A DNA stretch of 45,612 nt, filler included, from Jimgerdemannia flammicorona (Eukaryota): the NCBI GenBank assembly GCA_003990765.1. It is 2 parts of 2 records of this genome, joined end to end, with 100 filler letters (N's around TTAATTAATTAA, not from the genome) between each part and the next. Parts side by side here need not be neighbours in the genome. Positions count along the whole stretch, not along the records: positions 1 to 22,766 come from RBNJ01001208.1; 1 more part is not named here. The stretch is one strand, 5' to 3'. Shown here piece after piece: positions 172-45,083 of this stretch. The notes beneath the pieces are model-generated. The model was not told where the DNA came from. It worked only from the letters and a program-made list of their open reading frames with translations, and did no database searches. The stretch's first letter is position 1, and each line of letters begins with the position of its first letter. The position numbers were made by a program, and so were the translations under genes.

Positions 172-174
172 ACT

Positions 175-190
175 TAGTGCCCATTGGCTG
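175..190 (+). promoter_or_regulatory. Putative degenerate primer-binding site of family A
   Basis: TAGTGCCCATTGG 3 nt after the LTR end, probably TGG with G>A. Same ACT spacer as before family B's TGGTAGCAG. tRNA not identified. Confidence 0.45.
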
Positions 191-291
191 GTGATTCAAG
201 ACGAATCCCTCACTTTCAAGCTGAAAAACGAACAATCCCCATAACAACTACTCTGACTACAAGAGTCACTCCTGCAAGAATTCAAGATAAG

Positions 292-1660
292 ATGGAAATG
301 CATTCCCCTACATTCTATGGATATACTACTGAAGAGTCAATCCTGACCTTCATTGAAGACTTTGAACAATTTGCCGCCATGTGAGCCCTTGGTGTGGATG
401 CTCAATTGGCCCTTCTACCAGTCAGCCTCAGAGGACCTGGACCTGCCAGAAACAAGTTTAATGTAGCCACTTGCTGGTGCAGATGCAGTCAAACTTGCCA
501 ACATGAAGACCTTCCTCAGAACAACATATTATACTGAAGAGATCAAGCAAGCTCTCAAGGATCAACTCAATACTATCTGCCAGAGACTTAGTGAAGATCC
601 CAACTCATTCTATACCTGAATCTGCCACCAGATTGTCTTGGCTGGCTATGATGATGCCCTTAAGGAACAAATAGCGAATTCAACCTTCCTCAAAGGAGTT
701 TACCCTAAAATTGCCCTAGCAATCTGGTCTACCCCAGCTGTACTGACCCTTGATCAGAAAGTGGTCTTTGCACAGAGATATTGGACTGCCAGACACCCTG
801 TTGAATACTCAATGGAGAAAATAACTGGCATAAAGATGGAGCCATCAAAGCCAACTAGTATCTTACCTGCTACAGTTGTAAACAGACAACCAACCCCACC
901 TACCCCCAAGACAGCCAAAGCTGACCCAGTAAAAGAACTTACCAAGCAGTTTGCCAAGATGACTGCACACCTTGGTGATGTTGTTAGAGAAGTCCAAAGT
1001 GCCAACAGGAGACCAGTACAGAGATTTGCAGCTGCTACAGAAGAATGCAATACCACATGCTTCAGATGTGGAGAAGAAGGCCACTATGCAAAGAGCTACA
1101 TGACCAAAACAAGACACAAAGCCCAACCAAGTAATGCTAGCAGAACCAGAGAACAAACCAATGCAGTAGTCATTGAGGAGATCGGTGATACTGATAATAA
1201 AGAATACTACAAGGAGCTCGAATTCTACCCTGCTACTGAAGGTACCAGAACTCAGTCCAAGCCCTATGACAAGAAGAGCAACAGCAAGCCAGTTGGAAGA
1301 CCAAAAAAGACACCAGCTGTCACTATTCAAAGCAAGATCCAACCCAAGGAGATTGATCAAGACATGGAGTTAGATGAAGCTACCCGCCAAATTATCAAAG
1401 GCACTACTCCAGTCTCAGGAGAAAGTGAGAGCAAGAAGAAACAGAAGCTGTGTAAGACCAAGATCCACTAGTATGACATCTACAAGGACTTCAAGGAACA
1501 GAAGGTCAATGCCACTTTTGGACAGCTAGCTGAAGTTCCTGCCTTCAGACAGCAGTTGAGAGTAGGACTTGTAACTACTATCAAGAATCAAGAGTACAAG
1601 ATTGTAGAAGCTCACAATGTACAAAAAGAATCTGAGAACTTAGGTGAAGAATCTGAAGAC
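292..1660 (+). pseudogene. gag: Gypsy gag (family A), interrupted by stops/frameshift
   Basis: PTFYGYTTEESILTFIEDFE N-terminus; zinc knuckle CFRCGEEGHYAKSY with the last Cys mutated. End approximate. Confidence 0.8.
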
Positions 1661-4600
1661 CAGCATAAGACATCAGCCTATACCCCCTGCCAGATCTAAG
1701 ACTGTATCTTTGATATCATCATTGATACTAGTGCTGGAGGATGCCTCATGAGCAAGAAGGCAATTGACCACTTAGGTTGGAACATTGAAGAGTCCACCAA
1801 GATAGTCTATGTCACAGCAGACAGTACACGAGCTACCCCCCTTGGCAAAATCCGAGAAGTTCCCATCAAGATAGGAGGAGCTACCATCCCAGTAGACATG
1901 ATTGTTACAAGCACCACCAACTATGACATCCTCATTGGCAACCAATGGCTTCACAAGGCCAAGGCCATCATTGACCTCAATGCCCAGAAGATGCAGATCA
2001 ACTACAGAGGAAGAAAGGTACGAGTTTCTATCAATGTCCACAAAGGAGTCCTGCCAGACATGGAGGAAGGAGATGAAGAAGACACAGAGGTCTTCATGCA
2101 CTCAGTAAACAAGAACAAGAACAAGACACCCAAGCTTATAGATGAGCAGTGGTATAACAAGATCATCAATAGGTATGCCCCTTAAGGAAGATGCCCCCAT
2201 GGTACTAGAATGTACTGCTCCAAACACCTGAATGACTACTGGTCCTGTATCAGCGAAGTCAGGAAAATCCGTCAACAGAAACATCTACCGAAGCAAAAAG
2301 GAAAGCTGAAGAAGATGACCAGCCCCCAGAGCTTCAAGCTGACAGTAATGATGAGGAGGAATAAGAATCAGACATCACCCTCAAGATCAAGAAGTTTCAC
2401 CCTGAAGCCAAGATCCCAGAATACAAGACTGAAGGAGCCATAGGAATAGACCTTGCCAGCATCCAAGATGCTACTCTCGAACTACAGACCACCATCCTAC
2501 TTGGCACTGGAATTGGAGTCAAGCTGCTAGAAAACCATACCAGAATTATCAAGACCAGAAGCAGTCTGACCAAAAGTGAAATCTCAGTTGAAGGAGGAGT
2601 AATTGACCCTGATTACACTGGTGAGATTTTTCTCATAGTTAGAAATCACAACTACACCACTCCCTTCGAAGTCAAGAAGTATGACAGGATTGGCCAGATG
2701 CTGATCCACGAAATCAAGAAGCCTAAGATCATAGAGGCCACTGAACTTATCAAGACCAAGAGAGGAGAACAAGGCTTTGGATCTACTGGAAGAGGAGCCT
2801 ATGCCACCACCAAGATTACTGAACTTAAGCACAAGAAAGACAAGGACCAGAATAAGCACACATATACCATTGGAGAAAACTTTCCCCTGGAGGAACAACT
2901 TCTCAAGATCCTGCACCAGAATAAAGGAGTACTCGCTACAGACTTTAGGAATATCTACAATCAAGAACCCAAGTACTACCACAAAGTTGACACTGGTGAT
3001 ACCAAGCCTATCTACCAGAAATCCAGACCCATACCACCTGCCTACAGAGAGTGGCTGCAAGCCGAACTCAAGGAAATGGAAGAAGCTGGAATCATCAAGC
3101 AAGCTATCAGCCCCTGGGCCTCACCCATTATCCTTGCTCTGAAAAAAGGAAGCAAGCCTGGAGAGTTTGCACCAAGACTCTATATTGACTATAGGAAACT
3201 CAATACCATTACTAAGAAGGATAGGCAGCCCTTACCGAATATTCAAGAAATCCTTACCACCCTTGGAAGTGAAGCCAAATACTACACCACCTTGGATCTA
3301 TTCTCAGGCTTCCATCAGATCGGTCTCACTCAAGATGCTAGTGAGAAATCAGCCTACATCACACCTGATGCTATCTATATCTATCTGTGAATGCCATTTG
3401 GAATGTGCAATACCCCAGCAAGTTTCTAGTGAATGATGAACAGAGTCTTCAGCAACGAGATTGGAAAATGGCTCTTTATCTATGTTGATGATGTGATCAT
3501 CTTCAGTAATACTGTACGGGAATATATCAATTACATACAGCTAGCCCTCAAGAGGCTCAAGGAGCATAGCCTCTACATCAAGCCTAAGAAATGCAAGTTT
3601 GCAGCTCAAGAAATTGCCTACCTAGGATACCTCATCAACTAGACTGGAATCCACACAGACCCCATGAAGATCAAGGCTGTTGTAGCCTACCCAAGACCCA
3701 GAACAACCACAGAAGTCCATGCCTTCCTTGGACTGGCCAGCTACTACAGAAGATTCATCAAAGGATACTCCAATATTGCAGCACCTATCTATGAGCTACT
3801 GAAGAAGGAGACCAAATTTGAATGGACCAAGGAGTGTCAAGAAACCTTCAATGAACTCAAGACCAGGTTGACCCAAGCACCCATCCTCAGAAGACCAGAC
3901 TGGAACCTAGAATTCATCCTGCAGACAGACACAAGTACTATAGGACTTGGAGCAGTCCTAGCTCAGAAGAAAGATGGACACGAATATGTCATCTCCTATG
4001 CAAGCCGAGGTACCTGTGGAGTGGAACAGAACTACAAGTCATGTAAGCTTGAATACTTAGCGGTAGTTTGAGCAGTAGACAAGTTCCACTACTACTTAGC
4101 TGGAAAACACTTCACCATTCAAACAGACTATTCTGCTCTTGTCTGGCTATTCCACACTCTGAACCCCAAAGGAATATATGCCAGATGGATCTACAGGCTG
4201 CAAGAGTATGACTGTACTATCAAGTACTGCCCAGGAAAGACCAATACCAATGCTGATGCACTCTCAAGGACACCCCGAAACATTCCCATCAAGACTATTC
4301 AACATGAATAAGGAGCTATACTATAGATTAATCAACTATCTTGGGCAGCAGAAGATGCCCAACCACCTTGAACCTTGGACAATCACCATTATCAACCAGA
4401 CTTAGAAACAGTTTGAATTAGACAACACTATACTCAGAAAAGGAGGAAAGCTAGTAATACCTGAACACAAGAAGTATCAAATAATGAAGGAAGTACATGA
4501 GCAAGGACACTTAGGAGGAACCAACACATATGACAAGATAAGAAGAACCATGTGGTGATCAAAGATGGAAGAAGACCTGTGCCAATTTGTCAAAGGATAT

Positions 4601-5550
4601 GACAAGTGCCAAAAACAGAAATAAGATCAGCAAGACCAGGTACCCAGATCATCAAGAATTGAGCCTATCCCCTTCCACCACATTGCAATGGATATCATTG
4701 GACCACTACCAGTAACACTATCAGGAAACTGCTATATTATAGTTATTGTAGACCTCTTTACCAAATGGATAGAGGCAGGAGTATTACAAGAAGCCAATGC
4801 CCTCTCTATAGCTGATTTCCTATACCAAGAAATCATCTGTCACTACAAGACACCAAAGCAAATCACAACAGACTGCAGCACAGAATTTGTCAATGGATTC
4901 CACGAGATAATGTACCAGAAATACAAGATCTAGTACATCAAGACCATCACATACTACTCTTAAGGAAATGGACAGACAGAGAGAACCAACAAGACCCTCA
5001 AGAACATCCTAGCAAAGATCTCAGAGACATATGAGAATTGGGATAACTATCTCCCAACTGCCCTCTCTGTTCTATGAGATATATGGTCACAGAGCACACA
5101 TTTTACCCCAAAAGAGCTGCTCTTCAGAGAAGAAGATTCTAATGAAACCTCAGCCACAAATCTAGACCTAACTTGGAGACGAGTTGATGCAGAAATCCAG
5201 AGACTACACCAAATCAGGAAGAAGACTGAAGATTACATCACCAAGTCACAAGTACTGATAAGGAAGAATGCAGAAAAGAATCACAAGGCCCTAGAACCCA
5301 TCCGAATTAGAGAAAAGGTTCTACTGTATCGAAATATAGTAGAAGCCTCATGGTCATGAAAACTGGAGCCCAAATGGGAAGGACCCTTCTATGTGCAAGA
5401 TATCAAGGAAACTACCTTCTGGCTTAGAGAAATCTCAGAGACCATACTGCCTACCATGGTACATAGGAACAGACTCAAGAAGTACCACAAATCTATACAA
5501 GAGAAGCAAAACATGATGACCATCCATGAGGTTCTAGTCCACAAATCATA
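1660..5550 (+). pseudogene. pol: Gypsy pol (family A): protease, CxH/CxxC module, dUTPase, RT, RNase H, integrase
   Basis: IIDTSAG and DILIGNQWL (PR); LDLFSGFHQI, MPFGMCN, YVDD (RT); LQTDTSTIGLGAVL (RH); HEQGH, MDIIGPLP, TDCSTEF, GQTERTN, WEGPF (IN). Many premature stops. Confidence 0.93.
2371..2790 (+). other. dut: Trimeric dUTPase domain in family A pol, between protease and RT
   Basis: Five motifs in frame with RT: GAIGIDL, KTRSS, GVIDPDYTGEI, DRIGQMLI, RGEQGFGSTG. Confidence 0.93.
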
Positions 5551-6106
5551 ACAGTATGTCCCGTGACCAGCAGGCTATCTGTCTGGACTATTCTCTAAGG
5601 GATACAGCACTGGCAACTACTCATCTGTGAGACTTTTGCAGTCAGAGGAGTTCAAACCATCAACTGATTGGTCAAGATCAGAATCAGGCCCTTGCTCTAT
5701 ATGAAGGGAGTGACCCTTCACCATCACACCAAAATACAAAGAGAAGACGCTAGCCCATAAATACCAGTTTTCGACCCCTTGCCAGAGGTTATGGGATCAG
5801 CAAATTTTTCAGGACTGGACCAATGAATAAGGATGCTCAGGAAGATCCTTATTCAGGAGGAAGATGTAACAGTGATCCCAGAATGATGACATCAGCATAG
5901 GAGACAGCCTTTTCTTATAAGCCACCAGATCAGAGTACAAGAAGATCATATAGTATATGAGATGAGCAATGATGACCAACTGTGAGTCATTGTGACCACA
6001 GTACAAGCATCCTGAAGAATATAAAAGAAGGATCAAGGAACTGCAGTAGCAGCAACCAACAAGAACTACCAATCCCAAAATAGCTCAAAGACTTACTACA
6101 AACAAA

Positions 6107-6910
6107 ATGCCTGCTGCCCACCAAACCTCAAGGTCAAGGAATTACCAAGGTATCTCAGTCAAGGAAAGAATGTTCCAAGACATCAGAAGAGCCATGAGGA
6201 CCTGCTCAAGAAGGACTCCTAGTATCAACCTGGATACTACAGACCCTTATCACTTTATCCTCTACTACTGTGAAATGGAAACAAGGATCACCATTGCTAC
6301 TGAATGCCTCCAAATGTGGCAGGAGTATGAAATAGGAAACCTCCTCTGCCAGGAGTTCCCACAGGCCAGCACCCAAGAGCTACAAGATGCCACTCTCATA
6401 GATATACATGAAACAAGGACAGCTAAGAAGATTCATCAGATCTTCAGGCATATACCATGGTCAATCCCCAACTTGGAGTATATTAGAGTCTCAGATTTCA
6501 GAGACCTATTATCCTGCTGTATCAATATACTAGAAGCCAGGGTGGCTACAGAAGCCCAGTCCACTATCACTCTCAACAGCGAAAAAGTAGAAGACTTCTG
6601 GTACCCTATCCTCCAGGACAACCCAGATCAATTCCTGCAAGAATTGATCTCAGTATTCCAAGGCCCAAGCATCCAGGTTAGATCTCCCCAAGACCCCACA
6701 TTTGTTCTTTATTTTGTGGAAGAGAACCTCATAGACTGGAGAGCTCCAGACCTTGTCCCTAATTTCCCTGCCACAGCCAAATATGATGACATCATTGATG
6801 ACGTCATCTCGTGTGACGTCGAAGCATACGAAAACAACGAATTCGCGGATCTCATCTCCTTCAGTGATGATGATGATGAAGCCCCCATAATCCTGAACTT
6901 TCTGCTCTAA
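6107..6910 (+). CDS. Accessory ORF (267 aa, unknown function) of family A, inside the predicted U3
   Basis: Open ATG..TAA frame with A-rich start context, between the PPT/TGT and the TATA box; acidic C-terminus. Confidence 0.7.
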   Translation: MPAAHQTSRSRNYQGISVKERMFQDIRRAMRTCSRRTPSINLDTTDPYHFILYYCEMETRITIATECLQMWQEYEIGNLLCQEFPQASTQELQDATLIDIHETRTAKKIHQIFRHIPWSIPNLEYIRVSDFRDLLSCCINILEARVATEAQSTITLNSEKVEDFWYPILQDNPDQFLQELISVFQGPSIQVRSPQDPTFVLYFVEENLIDWRAPDLVPNFPATAKYDDIIDDVISCDVEAYENNEFADLISFSDDDDEAPIILNFLL

Positions 6911-6916
6911 GTTCTT

Positions 6917-7045
6917 TGTTACACTAGATAATGCCAGCACCAGTATTCTCATGTAACACTGAATAATGCCAGCACTGGTATTCTGAGGTGATGCGAAATT
7001 GTTCCAGCACTGGTATTTTGATGTGACACTAAATAATACCAGCCC
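6917..7045 (+). repeat. About 4 imperfect ~35-bp tandem repeats in U3 (enhancer-like)
   Basis: Units like TGTAACACTGAATAATGCCAGCACTGGTATTCT at 6917, 6952, ~6989 and ~7022. Confidence 0.7.
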
Positions 7046-7358
7046 TGAAACTTAGTAGTTTTAGTTATTGGAATTTATATTTAGCTTTATATCTTAGCAA
7101 CCATTGAATTATATTTTGTATAAATACCCCTCTTATTTCCTCTGAAATAAAGTCAGTTCCTCTCAGTACAATATACACACTTCCTTGCAAGCAATCTAAG
7201 AGATAACAAGACAGTTAAAGATAAGAAGTTTGAGGACTATAAGACCTTGGGAAGGTACTCCAATAAGAACTTACTTATAACAAACTTGAGTTAGTCTAAG
7301 AGATATACCTTGAAGAGAATCTGGCATATTTGAAGAACTCAGCGACCACTACATGACA

Positions 7359-9787
7359 GTACTCTGAGATATTTGTACAGCTATATCAGTTTTTATTATT
7401 TGAGATTTTTCTGGTAGTATTATCTATAAGACAATATTATAGAAATTATATCTTACATCTGTTGGATAAGTCTTAGTAAGAATGATTACTTTATAATAAA
7501 GCTTTTTAAATCTAATAACTTTTTCTATCTCAGGAATAATGTCAATAACTGAGATAGTTGAAGATCTTGAAAGAATATTTTTAATTTTCTCTAAACAGAT
7601 ATTAGACATATGTTCTGTCTTTTTGTAATAAAAACATTTACCTTCTTTTCTAAGCCTATCTCTTTCTTCTGAAGAAAGTTTTTGAAAAGTGGGTTTCTTA
7701 GATATTGAAGTTTCTCTGTTTCAATTTCTTTTTCTAAAGTCTTGATAGAGTTTACTTGAAGCTTGCTCAGAGTTTCTTATGCTATTCTATTCTTTAGATT
7801 TGTAGTAGTAGATACTACTAAAACCATTCTTACTCTAGTTACTGCTTGTCTGAAGCACTATTGATCATGAGGATAGTCTATAGAAATTCTCATTTTCTTA
7901 ACTCTTTTGACTAACTATAGAGAAATACTTTAGAAAAAGTAATTTGCTCTGGTTCTATTAGAGGCATTATTATCAGGATTATAAGAGAGTCTTAATATAT
8001 TCAAAGAGGCTTTCATTCTTGCTGCAAAGGCTTCTAGATTTTCTTTGCTATTTTTATCCTATTTCATGGCTTTTAATTGTACTCTTATATCTGCAAAAAG
8101 AGAAGGGCTTAGAAAATATCTTTTTAGAAGATATTTAAGTCCTCTTGCTTTAGAGATTTGTAGATATCCTGATTGATCTCCTATGGCATCTTGTTCAGTA
8201 ACTCTAATTCTATCTTTCTAAGTAAGAGATTTAGAATTTAAATTATAATACCAGAGAGTAGCTAAATCTCAAAAATAAGCTACTATTTTAGCAGTTTGAG
8301 CTTGGGCTTTTGCAAAGACTTCTTCTATAGTATATAATACATTCTTTACTAAGATAGAGTCTGAAGTTCTTTGGTCATTCCAACTGTTGCACTTATATCT
8401 ATTATCTACTGTACTTATAAATCCTGATAGATCTGTAGATATTCCTTTAAAAGTGGAAATTGATAGTGCTTTAACTAATTGATTCATAATTGCTATTTAT
8501 TCTACTAGGTTAGCTAATGCTGCCAGTTATCTTATTAATGCATCAGTAGTCATTATTGAGGTTACTGGTTCAAGTATAAACTCTGGTCCCCATGCTCCTT
8601 TCTCTGCTACCTTACTGGTCACAAGGTTTGGTAGGCAACCTTCCGAGTCCCCTTTCCCCTAATATTACCCCCTCTACCTCGGGTTGGTTTGCTGTGCCTG
8701 CAGGGGCATGGTGGGAGGAGGGCAATGGTGATGAGTTGCCCCTTTATCGGTATCAGATCGGTGCTTCCTCCACTTTTTCGCGGATTCTGGTGCCTTTGGC
8801 TGTATCTGGAGTGTACTCGTTTTGGTGCGGCGCCTTCTTCCTTTTGCCGTCACCAACAAGGAGTTGTCTCGGTATGTCTCGGGCTATGTAGGGAGTCGGC
8901 CGACCTTGGGCATCAAGTGCTTAGTGTAGGTTACCTGCAGGTCCTCGGTGCCTGTGGTGGGGCCCTCTGGCTTTGGCGAGCTTCCCGGTGAGTGCAGTTC
9001 TGGCGTAGGTGACTGCTTTTCGGGTGTTGTCAGGATGGGAGGGGAGATGGCTATCACAGATAGGCGGAAGGGTGATTATGGTAAACCAGTAGGGTGCCAG
9101 GCTGTGGGCGGTCATCGGGGCTGGGGTAGATACTGCTTCGGTGGGGCCTTTTGATTGGTGTGGCGTGGTTAGGTGGTAGGTATCACTATCGGCTTCTTTT
9201 GGCGGTCAGCGGGGTTGGGCCCCAGTCGTCAGGGGGGGTCAGGAGGCCCGAGGCTACCCATTTCAGGTGTCTTGGCTGCACTCAACTGGAACTGGGAGCT
9301 GACACGGCAACGTGATCGAGGCCCACAGGCTTGAGTAGTGAGGTATTGGAGGTTTCCTCCCACCTCACGTATAAGTCCTTTACTCATCTCAACTGGGAGA
9401 ACCAGGCCCTACCCACCATATTGTGCTTTGATGAGGGTTTTTTCTTTGCCTGTCATTCTCTTTGGAGTAGTAGAGGCTATTCTATTCAGCTCGGGCATGG
9501 CCTTGTACATACGTTGGGTTCTCAGGCATGTGCTTTCAGTCATTGGCATATGGTTGGGTTTCCCCTGGTGGTAGGGAGAGCATGGTGCGCAGAATGAGGT
9601 GCAGGCTTATCAGCCCTACTATGCCTGGCATGGTCGAGCTGCTGGACAATAGCTAGCCTAGGTTAATGGGGAGGCAGTGCTTGGTGGGTAGTGGGGGAGG
9701 GTTTTGGCCTATATAGTCTAGGTTCCCTTCCAATAAAAATCCGTGGGACATGAGTCTGTTAAACAAAAAAAAAACCGGGGGAAAAAG

Positions 9788-11466: not shown

Positions 11467-13021
11467 AACTTATCTAAAAGGAGACAAGACTTCTTTTAGA
11501 GTTTTGGACCTAGATGATATAATACTAGACTCATCAAAATTTAGTTCTGATCTGGTAATCACAGATGATGATATAGATACTGGTGAGGCTAGTCTTACAT
11601 TGAATAGTATAGAAATTCTCTATAACTAGATATTCATAGATATCTAAAGACTTCATTTATATATAGTTATATATCATTATTATAATACTCTTATAGATTA
11701 AAGTCATTTATAAAATCTAACTCAATTTGACTTATTAATTAATCACTAAGACTATTGATTTCTGCAGGAGTTATTTCTCTTATATTACTAATAGCATAGG
11801 GTATTTTATAGAGTAATTGGTAGATATAAACTAAAATATACTATCTAAAAATAAAGATATTATATTTATCTATAATTTCTGATAGAGTCAAGCCACTGTT
11901 TATTAGGAGTTTACCAGCTTGGTAATTCCTTAGTATTTGGAAGTGTCTTATGATTGATTATATCTTATAGCAATCTTATTAGTAGCTTGTAAAAATTACT
12001 CTATATCATAAGTATCAAGATCAATATATTTCCAGTTATACTAATATTGGTGATCAAAGATTGCTTCTCAAAGAACTTAATAGATATATTCAGAAGATAT
12101 GGACATAATTTGTTTATATTTTAGTTTTTGTTTTGGAGAATATCTGTATATTTGTATAGTAATTATTTAGATGAATATTTTCTAGAGCCAATTTGTAAGG
12201 TATTTATTTATTTATCAAATAAACTATTTTAGTATATAGCAACTATGATTTCATAGCTTATCATGGTCTAGTTTAGCTCATGAAGTTGTTGATTTTAAAG
12301 ATCTTACTAACTTCTAATATCAGAGAGCTGATAATATCAATAGCTAATTTTGATATACTCTAGTTTCTATGATATTGTAAGCACACAACCTCCAAGCCAC
12401 CAAAATCACATAGCATTCTCAGAACTAATTCAGAAACTATATGCGAGACTACAAAACAAGAGATCATCTGGTTACACAAAATATGCTAGCAAGCACAAGA
12501 ACCCACCACCAAGATATAAGAATACTAGAAGAAGTACTACAACCATAAGACTGACTCTGAACCACTATAACTAGTTTGGTATACTATACTATTACAAAAG
12601 GAAACTGAAAGTACCAAACTCAAATTGAGACAAGAAGAACCCTATCTCATCTACCAAAAGGTTCACAAACTGCACTTATCAACTCAAGACCAGGATACAC
12701 TGCAGCTATACAAGACCTCATTACTTAGTAGAAGCAAAACGCATTTGAATAACTCCATTGGCTCTATCTGTGTCACCTCCGTTAGAGAGTGACAGACATT
12801 TTATCTGAACTCAAGAAAGCCGACAACGTCGAAACCAATCTCAAGCCATCCACGTGACAGATATTATTAAAATATATAGGTTACAACTCAATATATGGTG
12901 GCACAGCCTTCCTTGACTATGTCATCATGTAAATGTCACTAATTGTGACGCGTAAAAGTGCATAAGAATTAGCAATAAACAGTTTGCTTGCTCCCTCCAT
13001 TCCAAGTATTCCACAACAAAA

Positions 13022-13033
13022 GGTTATGAGCCC
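13022..13033 (+). promoter_or_regulatory. Copia PBS of the half-tRNA-iMet type
   Basis: GGTTATGAGCCC 3 nt after the LTR; complementary to the iMet anticodon arm as in Drosophila copia and Ty5. Confidence 0.85.
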
Positions 13034-13084
13034 TGCTTAGTAGCTATACACCCCTCTTACACATACGCTACACTATGCTATACA

Positions 13085-16000
13085 ATGGCTACTAGTCTAA
13101 GCAGTGCTAGCAGCATGCTGCCAAGTTCTGGTAACACAAACACAAACACAGCCGGAATGGGTTTCACTTCCATGACAATGAACATTCTGGCAGTGGCATC
13201 AATATCAATGGTAAAGAGGATGATTCCTGTCTTTGACGATAAGGACTACACCATATGGACATACTATATGAAGAATCTCCTAGAAGAATGTGGTTTGGAG
13301 GACTACTGGAAGCCACAGGCACAAGTAATGACATACAATGCCACGAAAGATCGCAAAGTACTAAGGGAGATTATGTTCACTCTTTCGAATGTGCAAATGA
13401 AGCTGGTAATCAATGCTATGACAGCGAATGAAGTCTGGGAGATTTTACACAATCACCATCAATAGGCATCTACGTCAAACAGATTCCACTTAAAGGCACA
13501 ACTATTTAATCTTCGAATTAAGTCCAAGGAGAGCATCCGGGACTATGCCAATCGAGTCGATAAGCTGGCGAATCAAGTGAATTCCCTTACATTTATGCTG
13601 GCAGACACCATCAAGGATGAAGACAAGGTCCTGGCTCTTATATGAGGCCTTTCCAAAGTATACAATGTGGTTGTTGCTGCTATGAGAGAATCCGGTAGAT
13701 TATCAGATTATAAGCATATCATTACAAGCCTTTTAAATGAGGAAATAAGGCTAGGCAGCAACAATGCCAATGAGGAATACGACGAGAAAGCATTCTATGG
13801 CAGAGCATGTGGACGAGGCAAAGGCAAGCCGAATAAAGGTCGAGGCCAGCAATGTGAGAAATTCAATGGTAAATGCTTTTACTATAATAAGTGTGGACAT
13901 CATGAGCAGGACTGCAACTGCAAGAAGAAGGAAAAGGGTGGCCAACAGCAAGAACAATGGCAGGCAAACATGGTGGATGCCAACAATGAAAACAGCGGTG
14001 GTGGAGGTCTATTCTTTGCAGAAGCAGCGACCTATCCATATGCAGAAACCATTAAAATAGGAGGAAATTCAGAACCAACTGCCAGTTCCACCAATACCAG
14101 TTGCAGATGCAATTCCACCAGTTCGACATCTACAAATCCTGATCGACAAAACACTTTTCAGACAGTGAAAAATGGTGACATCAACGTCGGCACCAGTGCA
14201 AATGTAAGCTATATGCCGAACAGCACTTATGCATGCAGCGAAGAGGTCTGGCTCATGGATTCAGGTGCAACACAGTATGACAGCTCACCGGGAGTGGTTC
14301 TCTACATACGAGAAGTTTGAGCATCCCATACCTATCAAGCTAGGTGACAATAATGTCATTTACGCTCAAGGGAAAGACAATGTAGGCATACATCTATATG
14401 GAAACATTGATGAACCTTCAGGCACCTTCATGGACATACTATACACTCCAGATATAGGCAAGAACCTCTTCTCGATAGGCCGGATGATGGCTTGCAGGGA
14501 CAGAGGAGTAAATATACGCCCGAATGGTGTAATGGTAATCAATCTGAAGAACAATAAGGAGTTAATGTATACATCGAAAAAGGGGAATCTATACACAATC
14601 AATGACATGCCAAGTGGCACATCATTCACATATTCTGCAACTATGACTAGAGAGGATCTCTGGCATATATGGCATGAATGCTTAGGACATATCAGCAAGA
14701 TGAGTCTGGAACGGATGATAAGGAGCAAGTCCGTATATGGTTTACTAGACTATATGCCACCGGATTTCTTTTGTGATGGATGCATGGCAAACAAGGCTTC
14801 CTGGCAACCTTTTCAGGAATGAACGAAGTAAGCAGCCAGCATTCTCGATTTGATTCATATGGATATTTGTGGCCCCATGCGAATGGCATCACACTCCAGA
14901 AAGAAGTATTTTATTACATTCATTAATGATTATATATACAAAGTTTATGTATATTTCATTGCAGGGAAAAACAAGGCATTCGACAAATTCTGAGAATTCA
15001 AGGCAGCCATGGAGAATGAGACAGGACATAGAATACGAACCCTATGCTCAGATAATGGCAAAGAATACATCAACAAAGGTTTCAGACACTTCTTGAAGAA
15101 GAATGGTATATAGTACTCTACAACAGCCCCTTATACACCTCAGCAAAATGGTATGGCGGAATGATTCAATCAAACGGTAGTGGAAATAGCTAGAACAATA
15201 ATGAATACGGCCAGCTTACCGAAGTCCTTTTGGGTGGAAGCAGTGAATACAACGGCATATATTCGAAATTGTTGTTTCTCTTGAGCTCTAAGCAAGGATC
15301 CCGGCAAGCAATCCAGGAATGATAGCAATCTTACCCCTGAGGAATTATGGAATAGATCCAAGCCTGACATTTCACACTTATGCATATTCAGAAGCGAGGC
15401 ATACGTTCTGGACAAAGGTGGCAACCAAGGCAAGTTCAAACCTAAGGCAGATAAGCATATATTCCTTGGATACAATGGAGCGGGATACAGACTTTGGAAC
15501 CCGCAGAAACAACATATGATCATTTCACGTGACATACAATTTAAAGAGACTAAGCAGGAAATTTACATGGAAATTCCTATCTCAAATCTGACGGTGAATT
15601 CGATGGTACAGCCAGCAACATCTACACCAACTGCAAAGGCTAGTGGAATAACATCTACACCTGGAACGACACCGAAGACTATGCCAAAGACATCCTTGGG
15701 ACCTATGCCAGCGAAAACGCAACCCATTCAAATGGAAATGAAGTTGCAAGAACCAAGGATAATGGAAATTACGGATGAGGATGACGAAGAGGATACCTTT
15801 CTGAAGAGTAAGAAGAAGTGCAAATCTGGGATGGATAACGAAGTCCAAGCGGATCTGGGAAATTACCAGAACCCACCCAAGTCATCTCGTCATAAACAAT
15901 ATCACATGAACTACGCCTGCGAATGCACTTACATAGCAATGACTGGTGAGCCAGCACACTATGACAAAGCCATTCATTCGAATGATAAAAAGGAGTGGAA

Positions 16001-17508
16001 AAAGGCTATAGACAAGAAGTATAACTTACTCATCGAGAATGATATGTGGGACTTGGTCCCTCTTCCGGCAAATCGACAAGCTATAGGATCCCAATGGGTG
16101 TATAAAATTAAATGTAATAACAACAGTGGCATAGAATGATACAAGGCCCGATTCATGGCAAAGGGATATTCACAAGACTTTGGAGTCAACTATGACAAAA
16201 CATTTTTCCCAGTATTTAAGCTTACTTCGCTTAGAATACTTCTTGCGATTGGAGCCAAGTATGACTATGAGATACATCAAATGGATGTTAAGACAGCCTT
16301 CCTAAATAGAGACGTAGATACCGAACTATATGTTCTTCAACCACAAGGATATGAACTCTACAACAATGAGAAGGAGTTACATAGTATGCAGACTATGCAA
16401 AGGTCTCTATGGCATAAAACAGGTGGTGAGGCTGTGGAATCGAAAGATCGATGATTATCTCATAGAAGAGAATGAGTTCAAATGATGCAAAGCAGACCCA
16501 TGCATATACACTCATCATATGTACATCCTCAGGAACGGTGTACCTGGGAATTTGGGTTGACAATATCATTCTGGTCGGGATAACAAGTGAGATCAACGAA
16601 GTAAAGGCAGCATTATGCAAGAAGTTCAAGATGACAGATATGGGTGATGCATCTTTTCTTTTGGAGATATCCATCATATGTGATAGGAGCATGCATACTA
16701 TACACCTAAGCCAAGAAGCCTACATTTAGACAATACTCAAGTGATTCGGCATGAGCAAGTGCAAGCCAGTTGGAACACTGATGGAGATGTCTGTGAGGTT
16801 AAAGAAGTCTGGAACTATGCTTGAAAATAACAACATCCCCTATCGACAAGCTGTGGGATCCCTCATGTATCTTATGCTCAGGACAAGACCTGATATATCA
16901 TTTGCAGTCAACAAAGTGGTGCAATACTTATCATACTATGATAATTCGCATTGAATGGTGGTTAAGCACATTCTTTGGTATATCAAAGGAACTACGGACT
17001 ATATGGGCAAAGCGGGAGTACTATATGCCTACTTGGTTCTTGTGACGCCGATTGGGCTGGTGACTTAGATGACAGAAGGTCTATGACTGGATACATCTTT
17101 AAAGTAAACAATGGAGTCATTTTATAGCAAATGTATAAGCAACCTTCAGTGGCAACATCCTCTATGCAAGCGGAATATCAAGCGTTGTCAACAGCAACAA
17201 AGGAGGCTATCTGGCTTCGAGAACTGTTAAAGGAGCTGGGATATAAGCAACAGCACTCTATGCTACTCCAGCAAGATAACCAATCAATGATTGCTTTGGC
17301 GAAGAACCCTATACATCACGCCAGAATGAAACACATTGACATACAGCATCATTTCATATATGAATGCGTGGAAAATGGCACTATACACCTTGAATATACT
17401 CCAACAGAATATATGATGGCGGATTCATTGACTAAAGCCCTTCCAAAGGCAAAGTTTGACTTATGCGTGCAAGGAATGGGTATTATGGGACTCTACGCTG
17501 GTAATTAA
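13085..17508 (+). pseudogene. Copia gag-pol polyprotein with stops and frameshifts
   Basis: CFYYNKCGHHEQDC, WLMDSGAT, WHECLGH, DLIHMDICGP, HQMDVKTAFLN, IWVDNII, CDADWAGDLDDRRS, KHIDIQHHF. Confidence 0.93.
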
Positions 17509-18919
17509 GAACAATTTAGGATGAGATAGGATAATAGAGTGACAGCAAGCTTCTTTAACATTGATTCCTACATTGGTGATTTCTACCAACATTGCTCATC
17601 TACAAATGTTCACATTTCTACTTTTTAACCTATTTTTCGAGTTTTAAGCAGATAATTCAGGTGTTTTTTGGTTTCTAGATAGCGGTCTGAACATTGCAGC
17701 GAGATTTGCAGTGGTTATAGCTTAGTATTGCAGTTTGGGAATTTGCATATCTCATTGAGCGGGAGTATTGAAATATGTAGGTTACAACTCGATATGGTGG
17801 CACAGCCTTCCTTGACTATGTCATCATATAAATGTCACTAATTGCGATGCGTAAAAGCGCATAAGAATTAGCAATAAACAGTTTTCTTGCTCCCTCTATT
17901 CCAAGTATTCCACAACAGATATTACTACTAAAAATTGCCTCAGATTACAGAAAATATCATTTCTGAGAGGTTCAAACCCCCAGTCGTGACATTGGGAGCC
18001 CTCGCCCTAGACGAGAATGGCCAGTTCTCACAAATACGCCAGCAGACCAAAAAAAAAGAGAACCAAGACCTGTTATCCTTGTATAACCACTGCCACCAAG
18101 GGCAGCCTTAATCTTGCAAGAGATAGAAGTAGCGACACCTTGAAACTGATAATGTCAGAAGTCAGAAAACTGCTCAGACTTTGCTAGTGATAATGTTATC
18201 AATAGTGATGTCATCAAGGACTAACCAAACAGTGCCTAAATCTATAAATAGCCTAGCAGTTATAGTATAGTTAGATTAGCCTTATATGATGTGACTGTGA
18301 ACTAACTCAGTAGTCAGATGATCTCTTGACATATCAGATCACACTTATACTATATGACTGCATTCTGACTCAGCAAGGCACTTAGTGCTACATCCATATC
18401 TAGTATAGTCTAGATAGCCCCTCACTAGTATAAATACCCCCTCCCCCAGACCTCAGAATCTGAGACTCAAATATACAAGAACATTCCTGAATACTTCCCC
18501 ACAAATATTCCTTCACACAACTACTCCTAGTATAGCAATATCATGAATAGCAAATAAATCTATTCCATAACCCATAAACCACTCTTAAGTAAATCCACTC
18601 CCTGTTAGGTCCCACTCCTAACCCCATCACGAAATTTCCTAATTGGGTATTGTCTGCAGCGATACACCAATTCAACTAAGCTGGTCTTAGTTTTTTAAAC
18701 TTCCTAAAATACAGAAAATCCTGAACATCCAGAACTAGTCCGAAAAAGGACTTTGGTTGAGACATCAACCCAAACTTGAAATCAATAAGTGTAGAGGATG
18801 TACTCTATATGAAATTGATCTTGACCATAAGAAAACAGTCTTCCAGAATATCCAGAACTTCCAGAAAACCCTTCCAGAACTACATAATAGTTACCCTAAA
18901 AAGCAACCCTCTTACAACT

Positions 18920-18931
18920 TGGTAGCAGCAG
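18920..18931 (+). promoter_or_regulatory. PBS of family B (variant copy)
   Basis: TGGTAGCAGCAG after LTR end + ACT; same position as TGGTAGCAGCGG at 45072. Compatible with a tRNA-iMet (or Leu) 3' end. Confidence 0.7.
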
Positions 18932-20494
18932 TTTACAATCCAATTCCACTTCAAGACACTTCCTCATCCTGCTACAAACCCTTCTGAGAATTCCTATAAG
19001 TTGGTATAAAGCCCAATCTCTGAATTGGAATTTATCCTGAACCATCTGACAATCTGGAGAGAATTGAATCTGACATACAAGGACAATTTGATCTCCACAC
19101 CTGCAACAAGTGAGACAAACTTCATTCAAAGAAAGAAGTACTCAGGTTAAACCAGCAAATAGGCAAAACCCTATTCACCGAACTCCTTGTACTACACCCA
19201 GCAAGTCAGGATGAAGAAGGTCTTATTGAAGCCTTCTTTACTCTTCTCAATAAGAGTTTTGTCAGCTCCACAAATCCAAGCGACCTAGGATAACCAGCAG
19301 CAGTCTTTCTAGCCTTAGTTCCTCATGAAGCCCAAGCCTCTGTAAGGATTTGCCACTTGAAGTACTGGAGCAGTTATCAAGACATTCTTTAATACTTGAA
19401 AGGTGGTATCTTGCTCAGGTCTCTAATTTATAAGATTGTTGAAGTCTTTTTCTTGTTTCATAGTTCAGGGCTGTTCTTCTTTCTTGCTATATTTGGTCAT
19501 TTGGATAAGGGTAGTAGCAATCTTGGCAAAGTTGGCAACAAATCATCTATAATAGTTTACTAATCCCAGGAATGACTGGAGATCTTTCAGCTTCTTGGGT
19601 CTGGGCCATTTCTTGATTGCAGAAATTTTGCTGGAGTCTACTTTGATTCCATTCAGCATAATAATGTGTCTAAAGAATTGAATTTCTTTCAGGAGAAATT
19701 TGCATTTACTAAGTTTTGTAAAGAGTTGGTTTTTTTGGAGTTTCAGTAGTACTAGTTCAAGGTGTTCAAGATGTTCCTCCAGAGTTTTGCTGAAGACTAG
19801 TATGTTATTAATGTAAACAATAACAAATTTATCTAGATATGGGTACAGAATAGTATTCATCAGGGTCTGGAAGATTGCAGGAGTATTAGTTAAGCTGAAA
19901 GGCATAATCAAGAACTCAAAGTGTCTATAGTAAGTTCAGAAGGCTGTCTTGTAGATGTCTTCTTCTTTTATGGCAATTTGTCAGTAACCATTTCATAGGT
20001 CAAAAGAGCTTATAAATTGCAAGTTGGTAAGTCTATCAAATATTTCATTAATTCTGAGTAGTGGGCAATAATTCTTGATGGTCTGTTTATTGAGGTCACA
20101 GTAATCAATACACATTTATAGGTCTTCTTCTTTCTTCACAACAAAGAGAACTAGTGCACCATAGGATGATATACTGGGTCTGATGAATTCTTGTTCTAGA
20201 AGTTTATCAATTTCTTTCTTGAGTGCATCAATTTCTCTTAGAGACATGTGGTATATTGACTTGAAGACTGGTTTGGCATCTGAGATGATCTTGATGGCAT
20301 AGTCTACTGCTTATTTAGGAGGTAGGCCTTTTGGGAGTTTTTTCAGAAATATGTCTTGAAATTTCTGGAGTAGAGGTCTAACATGGCTGTCTACTTTGGA
20401 AATGTCTTCTTCAGAATTCTTAGGTTCTCCTTTGGATGGGTGGATAGAGATGACAAAGAGAGAGCACTTCTTGGCCAATTTCTTGAGCTATAGC

Positions 20495-20765
20495 TAGTGC
20501 TCCCAAATGAGTCAAATCAATTTGAATCGAATCAAATTGAGGGTCTGATTTGAACCCTAATTTTCAAAATGCAATAACTCAGCGTAAACTCATCCAAATA
20601 TAACGTCCCTTAGCTTGTTAGAATCACATTAATATGGTGAATCTAACAAGCTAAAATACATTAAATTTAGATGAATTTTCGTCGAGTTATTACATTTTGA
20701 AAATTAAGGTTCGAATCAAACTTCAAATTAAATTGGACCTTTGATTCGATTCATTGGAAGCACTA
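20495..20765. mobile_element. Fold-back hAT-type MITE (271 bp) with 8-bp TSD
   Basis: Ends TAGTGCTCCCAAATGA..TCATTGGAAGCACTA; TSD GCTATAGC/GCTGTAGC; palindromic along its length (e.g. TAGCTTGTTAGA..TCTAACAAGCTA). Confidence 0.88.
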
Positions 20766-21417
20766 GCTGTAGCTTGCTGATATAGGTAATCTTTAGTCTA
20801 GGGTTACTAGAGCTGAGTGAGTCCTTTTCACCTTGCAGTTTGAAGTTGTGGTATCCTTTCTTAATGATCAGAGAATGGTTTATCCAATCAACCATAGAGT
20901 TCTCTTATTTCAATCATGGGGTTCCAAGAATGATTTCATTGTCAGAAAATAGTATAATCTGGAGAGTAACATATACTCAATAGTCACCAATTCAGAAGGG
21001 CAGATTGCAGACTTCCTTGCTAATAACATGAGAGGTTCTATCAGCTGTAGTAACTACTTGAGTTTGTTGTACTGGAGATATCAGGGCCTTGAGTCTGTTG
21101 GCTGTTTCTTTATTAACAAAGTTGTCTGAGACACTACTATCTATCAAAATCTTGACAAGTGCTCAGTTGACAAAATCTTGAAGTGTAAGCAGTTTGTCTG
21201 ATCTAATAGTAGTGATTTTGGTTATAAGAGTTTTCCTTCTGTTGGTTCTTCTTTGAGCTAGTTCATTGACACAAGAGAAGCAATCATCAATTATTTGGGA
21301 AGAGTACATTCCAATGCCATGGAGACATTGGCCACTTGGTATATATCTATTTTTGATTTTCTTGTAGAATTGTTCTTCTTTATTCATAGTAGGTTGGGCT
21401 GGGGCCTTGTTTGATAA

Positions 21418-21820
21418 GCCAAATCCTTTGGATCCTCAGATGGTGGGTAGTAGTTCAGAGACTTCCTTGACTGTCAGGGTTGACTTGATTTTTTCAAATA
21501 GGATCTGGGTAATACAGAAACCAATGGAGATCTTGAAGAGTATCCAACTATGGTTTCAGATGAGAACAATAATTTCACCTGTATAATCTTCATCAATGAC
21601 TCCTCCTTCTACTGAGAGTTCTTTCAATGCTAAGCTGCTGTAACAGCATATTCTTCCAACATATTCTTCAGGGATTTGGTTGCTAATTCCTGTATAGACT
21701 TGCTTGACTTCTAGGTTGGAAACTATAGCTTCTTTAGCTGTATAAAGGTCATATCCAGCTACCTTTTGACTTTCTTTAGTTGGGGCCTTAGCAGTTTGCC
21801 TTAACTTAATAAAGTCCAGT
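21418..21820 (-). pseudogene. dut: dUTPase domain in element C, upstream of the protease
   Basis: AGYDL, GRICCYSS, GVIDEDYTGEI, ITQILFE, *GSKGFG; two TGA stops (likely from CGA); in frame with the protease. Confidence 0.88.
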
Positions 21821-22766
21821 GTTCTGGTAGTCAGATTATTAAAGTGATGCAGGGTAGTAACAGTTGCTTGTAATGCTGTTCAGAGTTTTTAGTTAGGGCA
21901 GGCACTGGCCATATATCCTGTCTTTCAGCAATAGAAGTATACTCTGCTTCTTTGAAGTTCATTTCTTTCTCCTTTAGTGAGTTTCTTGAAGGTACTTGGC
22001 TGGGTGGGTTTATGATTTCTGAGTATCTATGAGGTGGATGTTGAGGAAGCTTAGGATGCTTCATGCTTGGATTCTTCTTTCTTGATCTAAGTCTTTTTCT
22101 TGTTGTTGAATTGTCTTTGGAGCAGAATTGGTCCAGCTGTTAGAATTCATTTAACTATAGTTTAAATTTTTGCCAGGCACTATTATTGATAATCACAACC
22201 AACTGGGTATCCTTGTTCTCAGTTTTTCCTTATAAGCCATTCAGGTAGTACATCAAATAAATGGTCTGCTCTTATACTATTTCATGCTTCATCATTGATA
22301 ATGTATCCTAGGCCAATAGTGTTCAGAAGTAACTCAAGTTTTGTATAGAAGATTTCAAATTCTTCCTTACTATATATATTGAATTTGAGGTTGTAGAGTT
22401 TTACTCAAGATTCAGTAATCATGATTTTACTACAGTATTGAGCAATTATGAGCTATTTCAGTTCAGAGGCTGCAGGATGAGCTCCATATTCTGAGGTATT
22501 TTTTGCTGCATTTTGGGCAACAACTGCAGGTCAGGTGTCCTATATGAGGGGTTTTTTTAGAAAGAGTTTACTACTATTCTTCAGCAAGTCCTCAAAAGAA
22601 TATAACAACTCAGCAGATATAGACTGTAGTAGTAGTAAAGAGTTGTTTTAGAGTATAGTCTTGATTGTTTGTTAGAAGACAGTTAGCAACTCACTCATTG
22701 GTCTATTGATTGGCTTCAAAGTTGGTGTCAACTATACTAATGAAGCTTTGAACTTTTTTTTTTTTT

Positions 22767-22866
22767 NNNNNNNNNNNNNNNNNNNNNNNNNNNNNNNNNN
22801 NNNNNNNNNNTTAATTAATTAANNNNNNNNNNNNNNNNNNNNNNNNNNNNNNNNNNNNNNNNNNNN
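22767..22866. other. Artificial contig/scaffold spacer
   Basis: 44 N + TTAATTAATTAA (stops in all six frames) + 44 N. The two sides may not be adjacent in the genome. Confidence 0.95.
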
Positions 22867-22944
22867 GGGGGGGAGGGGGGTTAGATCGGATACGTCAAGG
22901 AAAAAGGAAGGGAAGAAAGGAAAAGAAAGAGAGGGATTACGTAC

Positions 22945-23774
22945 GGCGTTGCAGACCTTGCCGGCCGGGCCGGTCTGCTTGGTGAAGAGCTTGTGACCCA
23001 GCATCTGCTCGGCGAACATCTTGGCCTCGGTGGGACTACAAGAGTCCGCGTTTTGGAAAGGGAGCCAGTTAGCGCTCGGAACCCAATCTTTGAGCCAGCA
23101 TAGCATTGCACAAAGAAAGGACACTCACGAGAAGATGGTCCTCACGCCGCCCTTGAGACCACTGTCGAAATGACCCTTGCCGCGACCGCCAGCTAGAACC
23201 TGAGCCTTGATGACCATGTCCTCGGTACCTGTTGTGGGTCCGTGAGGGTATTTGTAGGAGGTAGAGGCAGGTGGTGAACAATGATGGTTTGGTGGATCGG
23301 CGTCCCATGGCGTCAATGTTTATCGGCGCGTTCACGTTGCGGCCTTCGGCCGCAATCCCGGCGGATCGGAGGACAAGGACAGATCGAGCGACTCCTCGCA
23401 ACTGATTTGCAAGTTTTCTCTCTCTGCATTTCCAGCACAGTCTTCTGCTCCCGATCCTTCCCCACCCACGAGATCGCAAACCACGCCTCTTTCCCACGCT
23501 CGAATCGAACGTATAACCAGTCCCGTTTTCTACAGCATCCGCCTCTCACCCTTTCGAAACGCTCCCCCTTGCGACGCTTACCGAGCTTGGAGGCGATCTC
23601 GAAGGCCTCATTGGGTGTCTTTGCGACGGCGCCGCGCGGGGTGTTGACGCCGTATTTGCGGAGCAGATCGACGGAGAGGTACTCGTGGATGGAGAGGTGG
23701 CGTTTCTGCTGGCGAATGGCGGGACGGGCAGCCCTTGCGTAGAGGGCGGAGGCGGTCCTGAGGGACGAGAACAT
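22945..23774 (-). CDS. LSC2: Mitochondrial succinyl-CoA ligase beta subunit, 5' exons 23774-23582, 23228-23129, 23035-22945; rest lost at the contig end
   Basis: Presequence + [35 protein letters not shown] introns (GTAAGC, GTGAGT, GTACGT donors) splice in frame. Confidence 0.93.
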
Positions 23775-31177: not shown

Positions 31178-31328
31178 TATAAGTATACAACCTCTAAGCC
31201 ACCAAAATCACACATCACTATCAGAATAAATCTAGAAATTATATATAAGATTATAAAGCTAAGTTAAACTGAAGTTACAAATTACAAAGCTGAGTTAACT
31301 CAAAGTCACAGAATACAAAATATATAGA

Positions 31329-31905: not shown

Positions 31906-32021
31906 TATATAGAAATGGAATCTTATCTATCAGGACTAAAAGTATATATATCAAATATATAGTATATCAAAATGAAGAACCACAATAAACTGAAACCATA
32001 TCTAGACATGATCACTGAAGT

Positions 32022-45068: not shown

Positions 45069-45071
45069 ACT

Positions 45072-45083
45072 TGGTAGCAGCGG
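45072..45083 (+). promoter_or_regulatory. PBS of family B
   Basis: TGGTAGCAGCGG 3 nt after the LTR end. Confidence 0.75.

Follow-up and report, generated by a model that had tools for sequence, protein, structure and literature searches.

The layout of a protein gene placed inside a long terminal repeat (LTR) is known mainly from a few retroviruses. In mouse mammary tumor virus (MMTV), U3 (the unique 3′ region) of the LTR contains sag, an open reading frame (ORF) for a superantigen; Sag is a membrane glycoprotein, and Pfam holds a model for it. The accessory genes nef of the human and simian immunodeficiency viruses (HIV/SIV) and bel2/bet of the foamy viruses, which also possess the internal promoter of tas, lie at the 3′ end and overlap U3. 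Here, we describe an intact ORF of 267 aa that lies wholly inside the 3′ LTR of a decayed Ty3/Gypsy retrotransposon of Jimgerdemannia flammicorona (assembly GCA_003990765.1), and we compare it with a frame in a second repeat family of the same window, by which we mean the whole stretch of 45,612 bases that was analysed.

In the full texts searched, the expression 'LTR ORF' is used almost only for MMTV. One candidate precedent was set aside, as its 'LTR ORF' means polyprotein ORFs (PMC12037069). Extra genes of LTR retrotransposons are recorded, in the available parts of the respective sources, as the ORF3s of the bdelloid elements Juno and Vesta (PMC5408684), an 'add. ORF' in fungal chromoviruses (PMC2864245), the antisense gene brtn of Boty-like elements in Botrytis (PMC8365987) and CERV of Cer1, an RNA-export protein (PMC10309623). 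None of these texts described a protein gene embedded in the LTR of a retrotransposon, fungal or otherwise, which leaves its absence from print unproven, as most subscription journals and the supplements lie outside this collection.

The window (G+C 39.7%, 88 N) opens within the LTR retrotransposon in question, hereafter family A, which is made up of the following parts.

1-171, + strand: tail of the 5′ LTR, the remainder of which lies left of the window; 96% identity to 7188-7358, ends ...TGACA at 171
172-190, + strand: primer-binding region, ACTTAGTGCCCATTGG in the window copy; other copies have ACTTGGTGCCCATTGG, a TGG-type site 3 nt past the LTR
172-5854, + strand: decayed internal region with gag (CCHC), protease, dUTPase, reverse transcriptase, RNase H and integrase (stop-to-stop frames, Pfam)
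5855-5864, + strand: polypurine tract AGGAGGAAGA, abutting the TGTAAC of the LTR (direct reading)
5865-7358, + strand: 3′ LTR, 1494 bp, TGTAAC...TGACA (sequence reading, repeat match, contig edges)
6020-6027, + strand: first TATA-like box, AATATAAAAG, 87 nt upstream of the ATG; candidate promoter of an ORF mRNA (motif search)
6107-6910, + strand: intact LTR-borne ORF, 804 nt, 267 aa (P0001), wholly in the LTR, starting 242 nt inside it and in sense to gag-pol
6752-6879, + strand: hypervariable part of the ORF, its acidic tail, with a (TGA)5 run at 6865-6879 (in-frame length changes among proteins, contigs, TRF)
6917-7043, + strand: 35-bp tandem repeat, 3.6 copies, directly past the stop codon and upstream of the core TATA (TRF); possibly enhancer-like
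7118-7130, + strand: GTATAAATACCCC, likely LTR core promoter; the 13-mer also occurs in family B LTRs
7146-7151, + strand: the sole AATAAA of the family A LTR (motif search)
7359-7363, + strand: GTACT, candidate right-hand target-site duplication directly behind the 3′ LTR, followed by unrelated DNA

The carrier is a decayed Ty3/Gypsy element with a dUTPase between protease (PR) and reverse transcriptase (RT). Pfam recognised zf-CCHC (E 2.4e-4), RVP_2 (1.8e-8, at 1700-2185), dUTPase and RVT_1 (4e-25 and 1.3e-6, together at 2365-3390), RT_RNaseH_2 (1.2e-26, with RT_RNaseH at 3643-4311) and rve (1.2e-9, at 4625-4933), all on the + strand and in the Ty3/Gypsy order PR-RT-RNase H-integrase (IN), with the integrase after the RT. 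A dUTPase between PR and RT has already been recorded for basidiomycete elements, according to the available part of the source (PMC2864245). The gag-pol frame of the carrier contains many stops and frame changes. Its primer site differs by one change from the TGG-type site of other copies; concerning self-priming of the Tf1 type, no LTR segment of at least 8 nt is complementary to 166-215, and a search for tRNA genes in the window found none.

The sequence-only reading had placed the ORF in the 3′ LTR on account of the polypurine tract followed by TGTAAC at 5865. Our boundaries agree: direct terminal repeats of the form TG...CA, with 171 bp of the 5′ LTR inside the window, flank an interior that has a primer site behind the 5′ LTR and a polypurine tract ahead of the 3′ LTR, and the ORF at 6107-6910 is enclosed entirely by the LTR of 5865-7358. 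Because the window truncates the 5′ LTR, the left edge at 5865 was tested indirectly, through contigs of four public runs (2316, 482, 279 and 44 records) aligned to 5600-7500 at 85% likeness, for which 24 loose ends of 160 were listed. Three contigs of run X2 leave the reference at 5865 with flanks that are unlike one another (agreement 0.58), and in run X9 one contig diverges at 5865 and another at 5872, each with 255 unrelated letters. At the other end, three contigs of run X1 and one of X2 continue past 7358 into ACTTGGTGCCCATTGG, i.e. the TGG form of the primer-binding region behind the 5′ LTR, and one X9 contig shows unrelated DNA behind 7362. As contigs break at 5865 and at 7358, the repeat unit must have the same start and end elsewhere in the genomes.

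The same alignments showed that transitions make up nearly all differences between the window and the contigs over 5600-7500 (A>G 36, C>T 41, G>A 25 and T>C 49 in X1, with each transversion at 2 or fewer), and that several sites carry T in the window versus C in other copies, at CpG-like sites.

The ORF is a real, conserved protein gene in the LTR and not a chance frame. When the LTR was shuffled, 2000 times by mononucleotides and 2000 times by a first-order Markov model, no frame of 267 aa arose, the longest shuffled frame being 180 aa, and the base use at its codon positions resembles that of gag and pol (position 1 rich in G, position 2 poor in G, position 3 rich in C). Among 164 candidates, a BLASTP search gave five relatives of P0001 (P0002-P0006) with 63-84% identity, or 60-87% in alignment A1. 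A profile search of 1.84 billion representatives found six proteins at E<=1e-3, of which five were kept (P0002 and P0011-P0014; E 7.7e-120 to 5.4e-12); the sixth, P0015, is a repeat protein matching in four short stretches and was dropped. P0011, P0012, P0013 and P0014 were new, with identities of 69%, 42%, 37% and 27% in alignment A2. Across both alignments, the members of family A (P0001-P0006 and P0011-P0014) have in common the blocks W.EYEI, AKKIHQ.FRH.P, ILQDNPDQ.LQ and F.GP.I and an acidic tail ending in DLISF...LNF. P0003 (271 aa, 75% identity in A2, 70% by BLASTP) and P0013 (342 aa, 37%) likewise begin with MP... and preserve the core blocks together with DLI[ST]F and LNF in the tail. 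The start, the core blocks and the C-terminal motifs are kept throughout the nine database members, down to 27% identity.

Relatives beyond this small family were found neither among 5.8 billion proteins nor among the 1.84 billion representatives. Pfam gave only DUF3517 for P0001 at E<=0.1 (12.1 bits, cut-off 25), and nothing at E<=0.05 for P0003, P0012, P0013 and P0014. Searches of sequenced contigs were likewise empty: with alignment A1, 279 pattern matches in metagenome contigs contained no relative, a 22-mer of the LTR had no match there, and neither the 21 pattern matches in viral contigs nor the 19 in genome contigs included a relative.

The openness of the frame can be set against a neutral model in which substitutions, without indels, were introduced in 3000 runs per identity level. 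At 69% amino acid identity, 34 of the 3000 simulated ORFs were still open; at 47% and at 34%, none of 3000 was. Thus, a family A frame that is open across such diverged relatives is unexpected under neutrality. The contigs show a corresponding pattern of length changes: among the 12 indels listed of 15 on 5600-7500, the two in the ORF measure +3 and +6, and nine of the ten outside it are single bases. The ORF insertions, TGA and TGATGA, lie at 6864, and one X9 contig that bridges the thinly covered tail of the ORF (6752-6879) has 128 nt in place of 86 nt, a net gain of 42. The earlier suggestion of a genuine LTR protein is therefore borne out by the shuffles, the neutral simulation and the relatives down to 27% identity.

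Within the LTR, the ORF probably lies in U3. The order of elements is the edge at 5865, the TATA-like box at 6020, the ORF, the 35-bp repeats, TATAAATA at 7119, AATAAA at 7146 and the end at 7358, and the two TATA-like boxes at 6020 and 7119 are the only ones of the family A LTR. We infer a U3 placement because ORF, tandem repeats, TATAAATA and AATAAA follow the classical order of enhancer, promoter and R (the terminally repeated region). The copy number of the tandem repeats varies, as one contig of run X4 omits 35 nt at 6968-7004. The 13-mer GTATAAATACCCC around the second box has three matches in the window (7118 in the A LTR, 18428 and 44579 in two B LTRs) versus 0.08 expected, and none of 100 shuffles reached three; the pattern was picked after both LTRs had been inspected, and the shared 13-mer therefore gives modest support.

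In P0001, a basic N-terminal end is followed by a predicted helical core and a conserved block (residues 142-215); the tail is acidic and carries the motifs DLISF and LNFLL. The net charge of P0001 is +4 over residues 1-30 and 0 over 31-60 (+4 and +4 in P0003), and the protein beyond the first 60 residues is acidic, with a net charge of -23. An AlphaFold model reached a mean predicted local distance difference test (pLDDT) score of 49.4, with 60-76 over about residues 60-160; this low-confidence model places helices at 18-149 and folds residues 200-212 into a small hairpin. Confidence is also low for the fold of 142-215, the block with the best conservation. With the model as query, Foldseek found no match at E<=1e-3 in the PDB or in BFVD, and the wide VIA search over 48,161 chains gave a best Z of 4.1 and no chain at 5 or above. 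The A2 profile matched no PDB sequence at E<=10. In the ESM Atlas, P0001 had no usable match, and P0008, a relative of the family B frame treated below, returned unrelated rows only.

Taken together, we consider it probable that a Ty3/Gypsy lineage with a dUTPase has in the 267-aa ORF a genuine accessory gene, carried in sense and wholly within the LTR, most likely in U3. In the mechanism that we propose, each LTR would act as a small gene cassette, in which an mRNA of ~1.1 kb would arise from the TATA-like box at 6020 and finish at the poly(A) signal of the LTR itself. The genomic RNA would also carry the 3′ copy of the ORF at its end, to be copied to both ends at reverse transcription, and solo LTRs would be cassettes as well. 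As a best guess, the protein may regulate in trans or serve as an adaptor, with the acidic tail as its effector part, for example as an acidic transactivator of the LTR or as a recruiter of a host factor.

Several considerations weigh against this proposal. Transcription start, poly(A) site and expression of the ORF are predicted from motifs, and the presence of the ORF in the 5′ LTR is deduced from the repeat edges of other copies. No fold, family or motif match in Pfam, PDB, BFVD, VIA or the ESM Atlas points to a function. The 21 ORF variant sites listed fall on codon positions 1/2/3 as 8/6/7, with no excess at the third position, and most of them are private to the window copy; this copy of the element is probably dead, because its gag-pol is broken and its ORF has such private changes. 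The divergence of 4% between the LTRs, or ~2% decay per LTR, makes an intact frame of 804 nt unremarkable. Furthermore, the family A relatives were ascertained as open frames, and the ratios of non-synonymous to synonymous substitution (dN/dS) reported below cover family B only and not family A.

Is a gene inside the LTR a property of family A alone? The sequence-only reading had proposed that two unrelated LTRs encode proteins that resemble each other. The other repeat, family B, a putative LTR, and a further candidate relative are located as follows.

43005-45335, + strand: family B copy B3, starting TGTAAG (repeat comparison)
32021-34088: family B copy B2, starting TGTAAG and cut at 34088 (repeat comparison)
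18186-19182: right part of family B copy B1 (repeat comparison)
34734-35985: relative of family B at 72% (repeat comparison)
43293-44390, + strand: frame of family B, ~365 aa long, interrupted in B3 by 5 internal stops (relatives P0008 and P0007)
11637-11966, - strand: relic, now decayed, of a third protein related to that of A (family A hidden Markov model, HMM, 16.8 bits, independent E 8.3e-5, model positions 59-144)

The family B frame is taken to be about 365 aa long because P0008 covers its N-terminal part (85% identity) and P0007 its C-terminal part (62%); it is thus longer than the 194-aa ORF that the sequence-only reading probably used. All copies in the window are broken, B3 by 5 stops, B2 by 8 stops and a frame change, and the frame of the 72% relative (34680-35800) by 26 stops. 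Between B3 and B2, dN/dS is 0.27 for the N-terminal and 0.15 for the C-terminal part, versus 0.55-1.26 in the other two frames; hence, the family B frame, too, was a gene under selection. Its ATG has the TATA-like AATATAAAG at a distance of 136 nt upstream, and GTATAAATACCCC at 44579 and AATAAA at 44705 follow downstream. No Pfam domain was detected in the right part of the B repeat in the frames tried, no polypurine tract was found upstream of B3 or B2, and fragments of RT and RNase H near the B copies lie on the minus strand, opposite to the B frame.

Around these copies, ~360 bp separate B3 from a minus-strand RT fragment to its left (41823-42641, RVT_1, 1.4e-9), and two + strand fragments, 12376-12455 and 31180-31257, resemble the B repeat over its initial 50-80 bases at 78-84% identity; the former lies directly right of the family A-like relic, the latter 840 bp before B2. 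The block 34500-40500, which includes 34680-35800 and holds the 72% relative, is very AT-rich (21-27% G+C), and its changes look like heavy C-to-T and G-to-A mutation, either of the kind seen in repeat-induced point mutation or driven by methylation.

The ordered motifs that had been reported for A and B are where they were claimed to be, with YEIGNLL at 6326 and TAKKIHQIF at 6419 in A, YWIGHLL at 43476 and ITCKYRELF at 43560 in B, and spacers of 24 and 21 aa. Equally, extended DNA similarity between the families is lacking, as claimed: blastn with the A LTR matched, within the window, only itself and the tail of the 5′ LTR, and the best E between the two LTRs at word size 7 was 0.55. The 35-aa block taken alone has 7 identities, i.e. 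chance level, and BLASTP of A versus B gives an E of 1.2; the resemblance therefore rises above chance at the profile level only. There, hhalign aligned 125 columns (A 24-151, B 9-134) in the same register as that proposed earlier, with a score of 27.7, a probability of 6% and an E of 0.0062. Column shuffles of B had a mean score of 13.8 (standard deviation 2.2, maximum 21.7), none of 150 reaching 27.7, and reversed controls scored 14.9 and 14.5. The N-terminal parts alone scored 27.0, which none of 100 shuffles reached. When the relic was added to the family A alignment, the score against B was 31.1 with a probability of 14%, again reached by none of 100 shuffles (maximum 25.2). Overall, E ranged over 0.002-0.006 and the probability over 6-14%, above all 350 shuffles.

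The relic alone scored against B at a value reached by 35 of 100 shuffles, and subsets of family A restricted to close or to distant members scored 16.5 (reached by 15 of 60 shuffles) and 17.4 (9 of 60), both aligning to B in pieces of the same register. When the family A HMM was run over 456 six-frame segments of the window, the B frame came next after A and the relic (7.1 bits, E 0.07, HMM positions 8-144). In the reverse direction, the A frame was not among the 16 best six-frame matches of the B N-terminal HMM, under which P0001 obtained 0.4 bits and P0013 obtained 3.7 bits with an E of 1.2. Among the 1.84 billion representatives, the profile of family A retrieved no protein of B. A C-terminal look-alike (P0001 197-211 versus B ~306-320, PTF..YF..EN.IDW versus PTPYP.YK.DN.ILW) scored 13.5, a value reached by 8 of 100 shuffles. 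Both N-terminal parts are predicted to be helical, a likeness that says little; the B model, with a mean pLDDT of 29.3, is unusable, and a fold comparison of A and B could therefore not decide. By eye only, the heptad RDDVIDD is common to the low-complexity acidic tails of P0002 and P0007.

The relic is embedded in AT-rich DNA, and a TGTAAC at ~12473 (- strand), its possible LTR edge, conflicts with the B-type LTR start at 12376 (+ strand). As a third relative, the relic would fit the idea of several lineages.

What had been proposed as an old family of helical accessory proteins kept in the LTRs of several lineages thus stands in part. The ORF lies in the LTR, the genes are real (for the family B frame through its database relatives and a dN/dS of 0.15-0.27 versus 0.55-1.26 off frame), and the relic is compatible with it; the kinship of A and B is weakly and unevenly supported. 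The helical character comes, for A, from a low-confidence model (mean pLDDT 49, core 60-76) and finds no usable counterpart in B (pLDDT 29). The profile-profile comparison that had been suggested as a check returned scores above 350 of 350 shuffles in the same register, at a probability of 6-14%. We place the odds that the family B LTR protein is a distant relative of A at about even.

Just short of an even chance we give to the converse, namely that A and B are unrelated, that two Gypsy lineages each gained an LTR gene of their own, and that motifs, acidic tails and layout reflect convergence or chance. This agrees with the BLASTP E of 1.2, the hhalign probability of 6-14%, a family A profile that reaches no B protein, a B HMM that misses A, subset and C-terminal scores within the range of shuffles and the lack of DNA similarity. 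It is at odds, however, with hhalign scores of 27.7, 27.0 and 31.1 that were reached by 0 of 150, 0 of 100 and 0 of 100 shuffles over 125 columns in one register, with the rank of the B frame as first among unrelated six-frame segments for the family A HMM, and with an identical LTR layout together with the shared 13-mer core promoter. The widest interpretation, in which an old gene family resides inside the LTRs of diverged Gypsy lineages (A, B and the relic), each LTR, solo LTRs among them, would be an autonomous gene with a promoter of its own and the poly(A) signal borrowed from the LTR, and the product would be a transactivator or a counter-silencing adaptor in the manner of retroviral accessory factors, appears to us rather doubtful.

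For the A frame itself, its position relative to the LTR promoter allows another arrangement, which we judge unlikely. If the box at 6020 were the promoter of the LTR, genomic RNA would begin near 6050 and the ORF, located in R/U5 (U5 being the unique 5′ region), would be the first cistron before gag, with a very long R. A TATA-like box 87 nt before the ATG of A and a similar box preceding the B frame would suit it, but it requires an R of ~1.1 kb and read-through of the only AATAAA of the 5′ LTR, and tandem repeats, TATAAATA and AATAAA come in classical order past the ORF, with the core 13-mer common with B. Known R regions are far shorter than ~1.1 kb. We find it more improbable still that the ORF region is foreign to the LTR, as a captured host gene or another small element that became nested within the LTR in a single sublineage. 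The extra ORFs of LTR elements are often captured genes, as stated in the available part of PMC5408684; here, however, there are no relatives outside family A in either of the large protein sets and no Pfam family, relatives down to 27% identity share the ends of the frame, and the codon-position composition is like that of gag and pol. Moreover, none of the 24 loose ends listed of 160 falls at the ORF edges, and inside the ORF, besides the variable tail, there is only the one at 6457. Finally, that the ORF is a meaningless open frame persisting by chance is hardly credible: the window copy is decayed and the ESM Atlas recognition value is low (1771), but shuffles, neutral simulation, profile relatives and the in-frame pattern of indels speak against it. 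The accessory gene inside the LTR, most likely in U3, thus remains the reading that we prefer.

The window holds further elements. A Ty1/Copia element at 12865-17917 (Pol_BBD, gag_pre-integrs, SH3_retrovirus, RVT_2) with short LTRs at 12865-13018 and 17766-17917, about 95% alike, is apparently inserted into a B-type repeat. At 19357-21879 (- strand), adjoining the right end of B1, lies a fragment of a second dUTPase-bearing Gypsy element with dUTPase, RT and RNase H and without integrase; it is 34% identical to the pol of element A over dUTPase-RT and 32% over RNase H. Further right are N runs at 22767-22810 and 22823-22866 and an ATP-grasp_2 fragment at 23316-24017 (- strand). The region 22500-30000 is G+C-rich (49-61%) and has long ORFs on both strands, including minus-strand ORFs of 504 and 507 aa, without a Pfam match.

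A conserved, selected gene in the LTR would mean that a clade of retrotransposons has accessory functions like those of retroviruses and that solo LTRs can be coding. LTRs are non-coding by default in annotation; LTR genes are therefore masked as repeats and never enter proteomes, and the masking of transposable elements would hide a class of genes. Should the old LTR gene family exist, these elements would be 'complex' in the sense of complex retroviruses, and solo LTRs would form a dispersed reservoir of a trans-acting element protein.

How does the family A ORF compare with the systems described so far? With the additional ORFs of Juno/Vesta, the chromoviruses, brtn and CERV, it has in common that an extra gene of unknown or regulatory function is specific to a lineage and is carried by a Gypsy-type element. 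According to the available parts of these sources, however, those genes are placed behind pol but ahead of the 3′ LTR, or upstream of gag, or in antisense, as in the case of brtn, and none is described inside an LTR. The closest counterpart in the window is family B, which repeats the TGTAA[CG] edge, a TATA-like box, an ORF starting at 242 nt (A) or 288 nt (B), then GTATAAATACCCC and AATAAA, with a helical N-terminal part and an acidic rest predicted in both; yet its protein is ~100 aa longer, shows no pairwise or DNA similarity to A, and is broken in all window copies.

Among retroviruses, nef and bel2/bet overlap U3, whereas the family A ORF is contained entirely in the LTR and has no sequence or fold match to them in BFVD or PDB. 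Like them, it is a 3′-terminal accessory gene with a possible internal promoter and an acidic region whose motifs may bind host factors. MMTV sag differs in its host and in that family A is Ty3/Gypsy without env and has no Pfam match to Sag (E<=0.05-0.1); unlike the membrane glycoprotein Sag, the acidic A protein shows no hydrophobic stretch on reading, though no dedicated test was made. In its layout, the family A ORF is most akin to sag: both are genes wholly within an LTR, in sense and upstream of the core promoter (in A, of the likely one), so that each end of the provirus would carry the gene.

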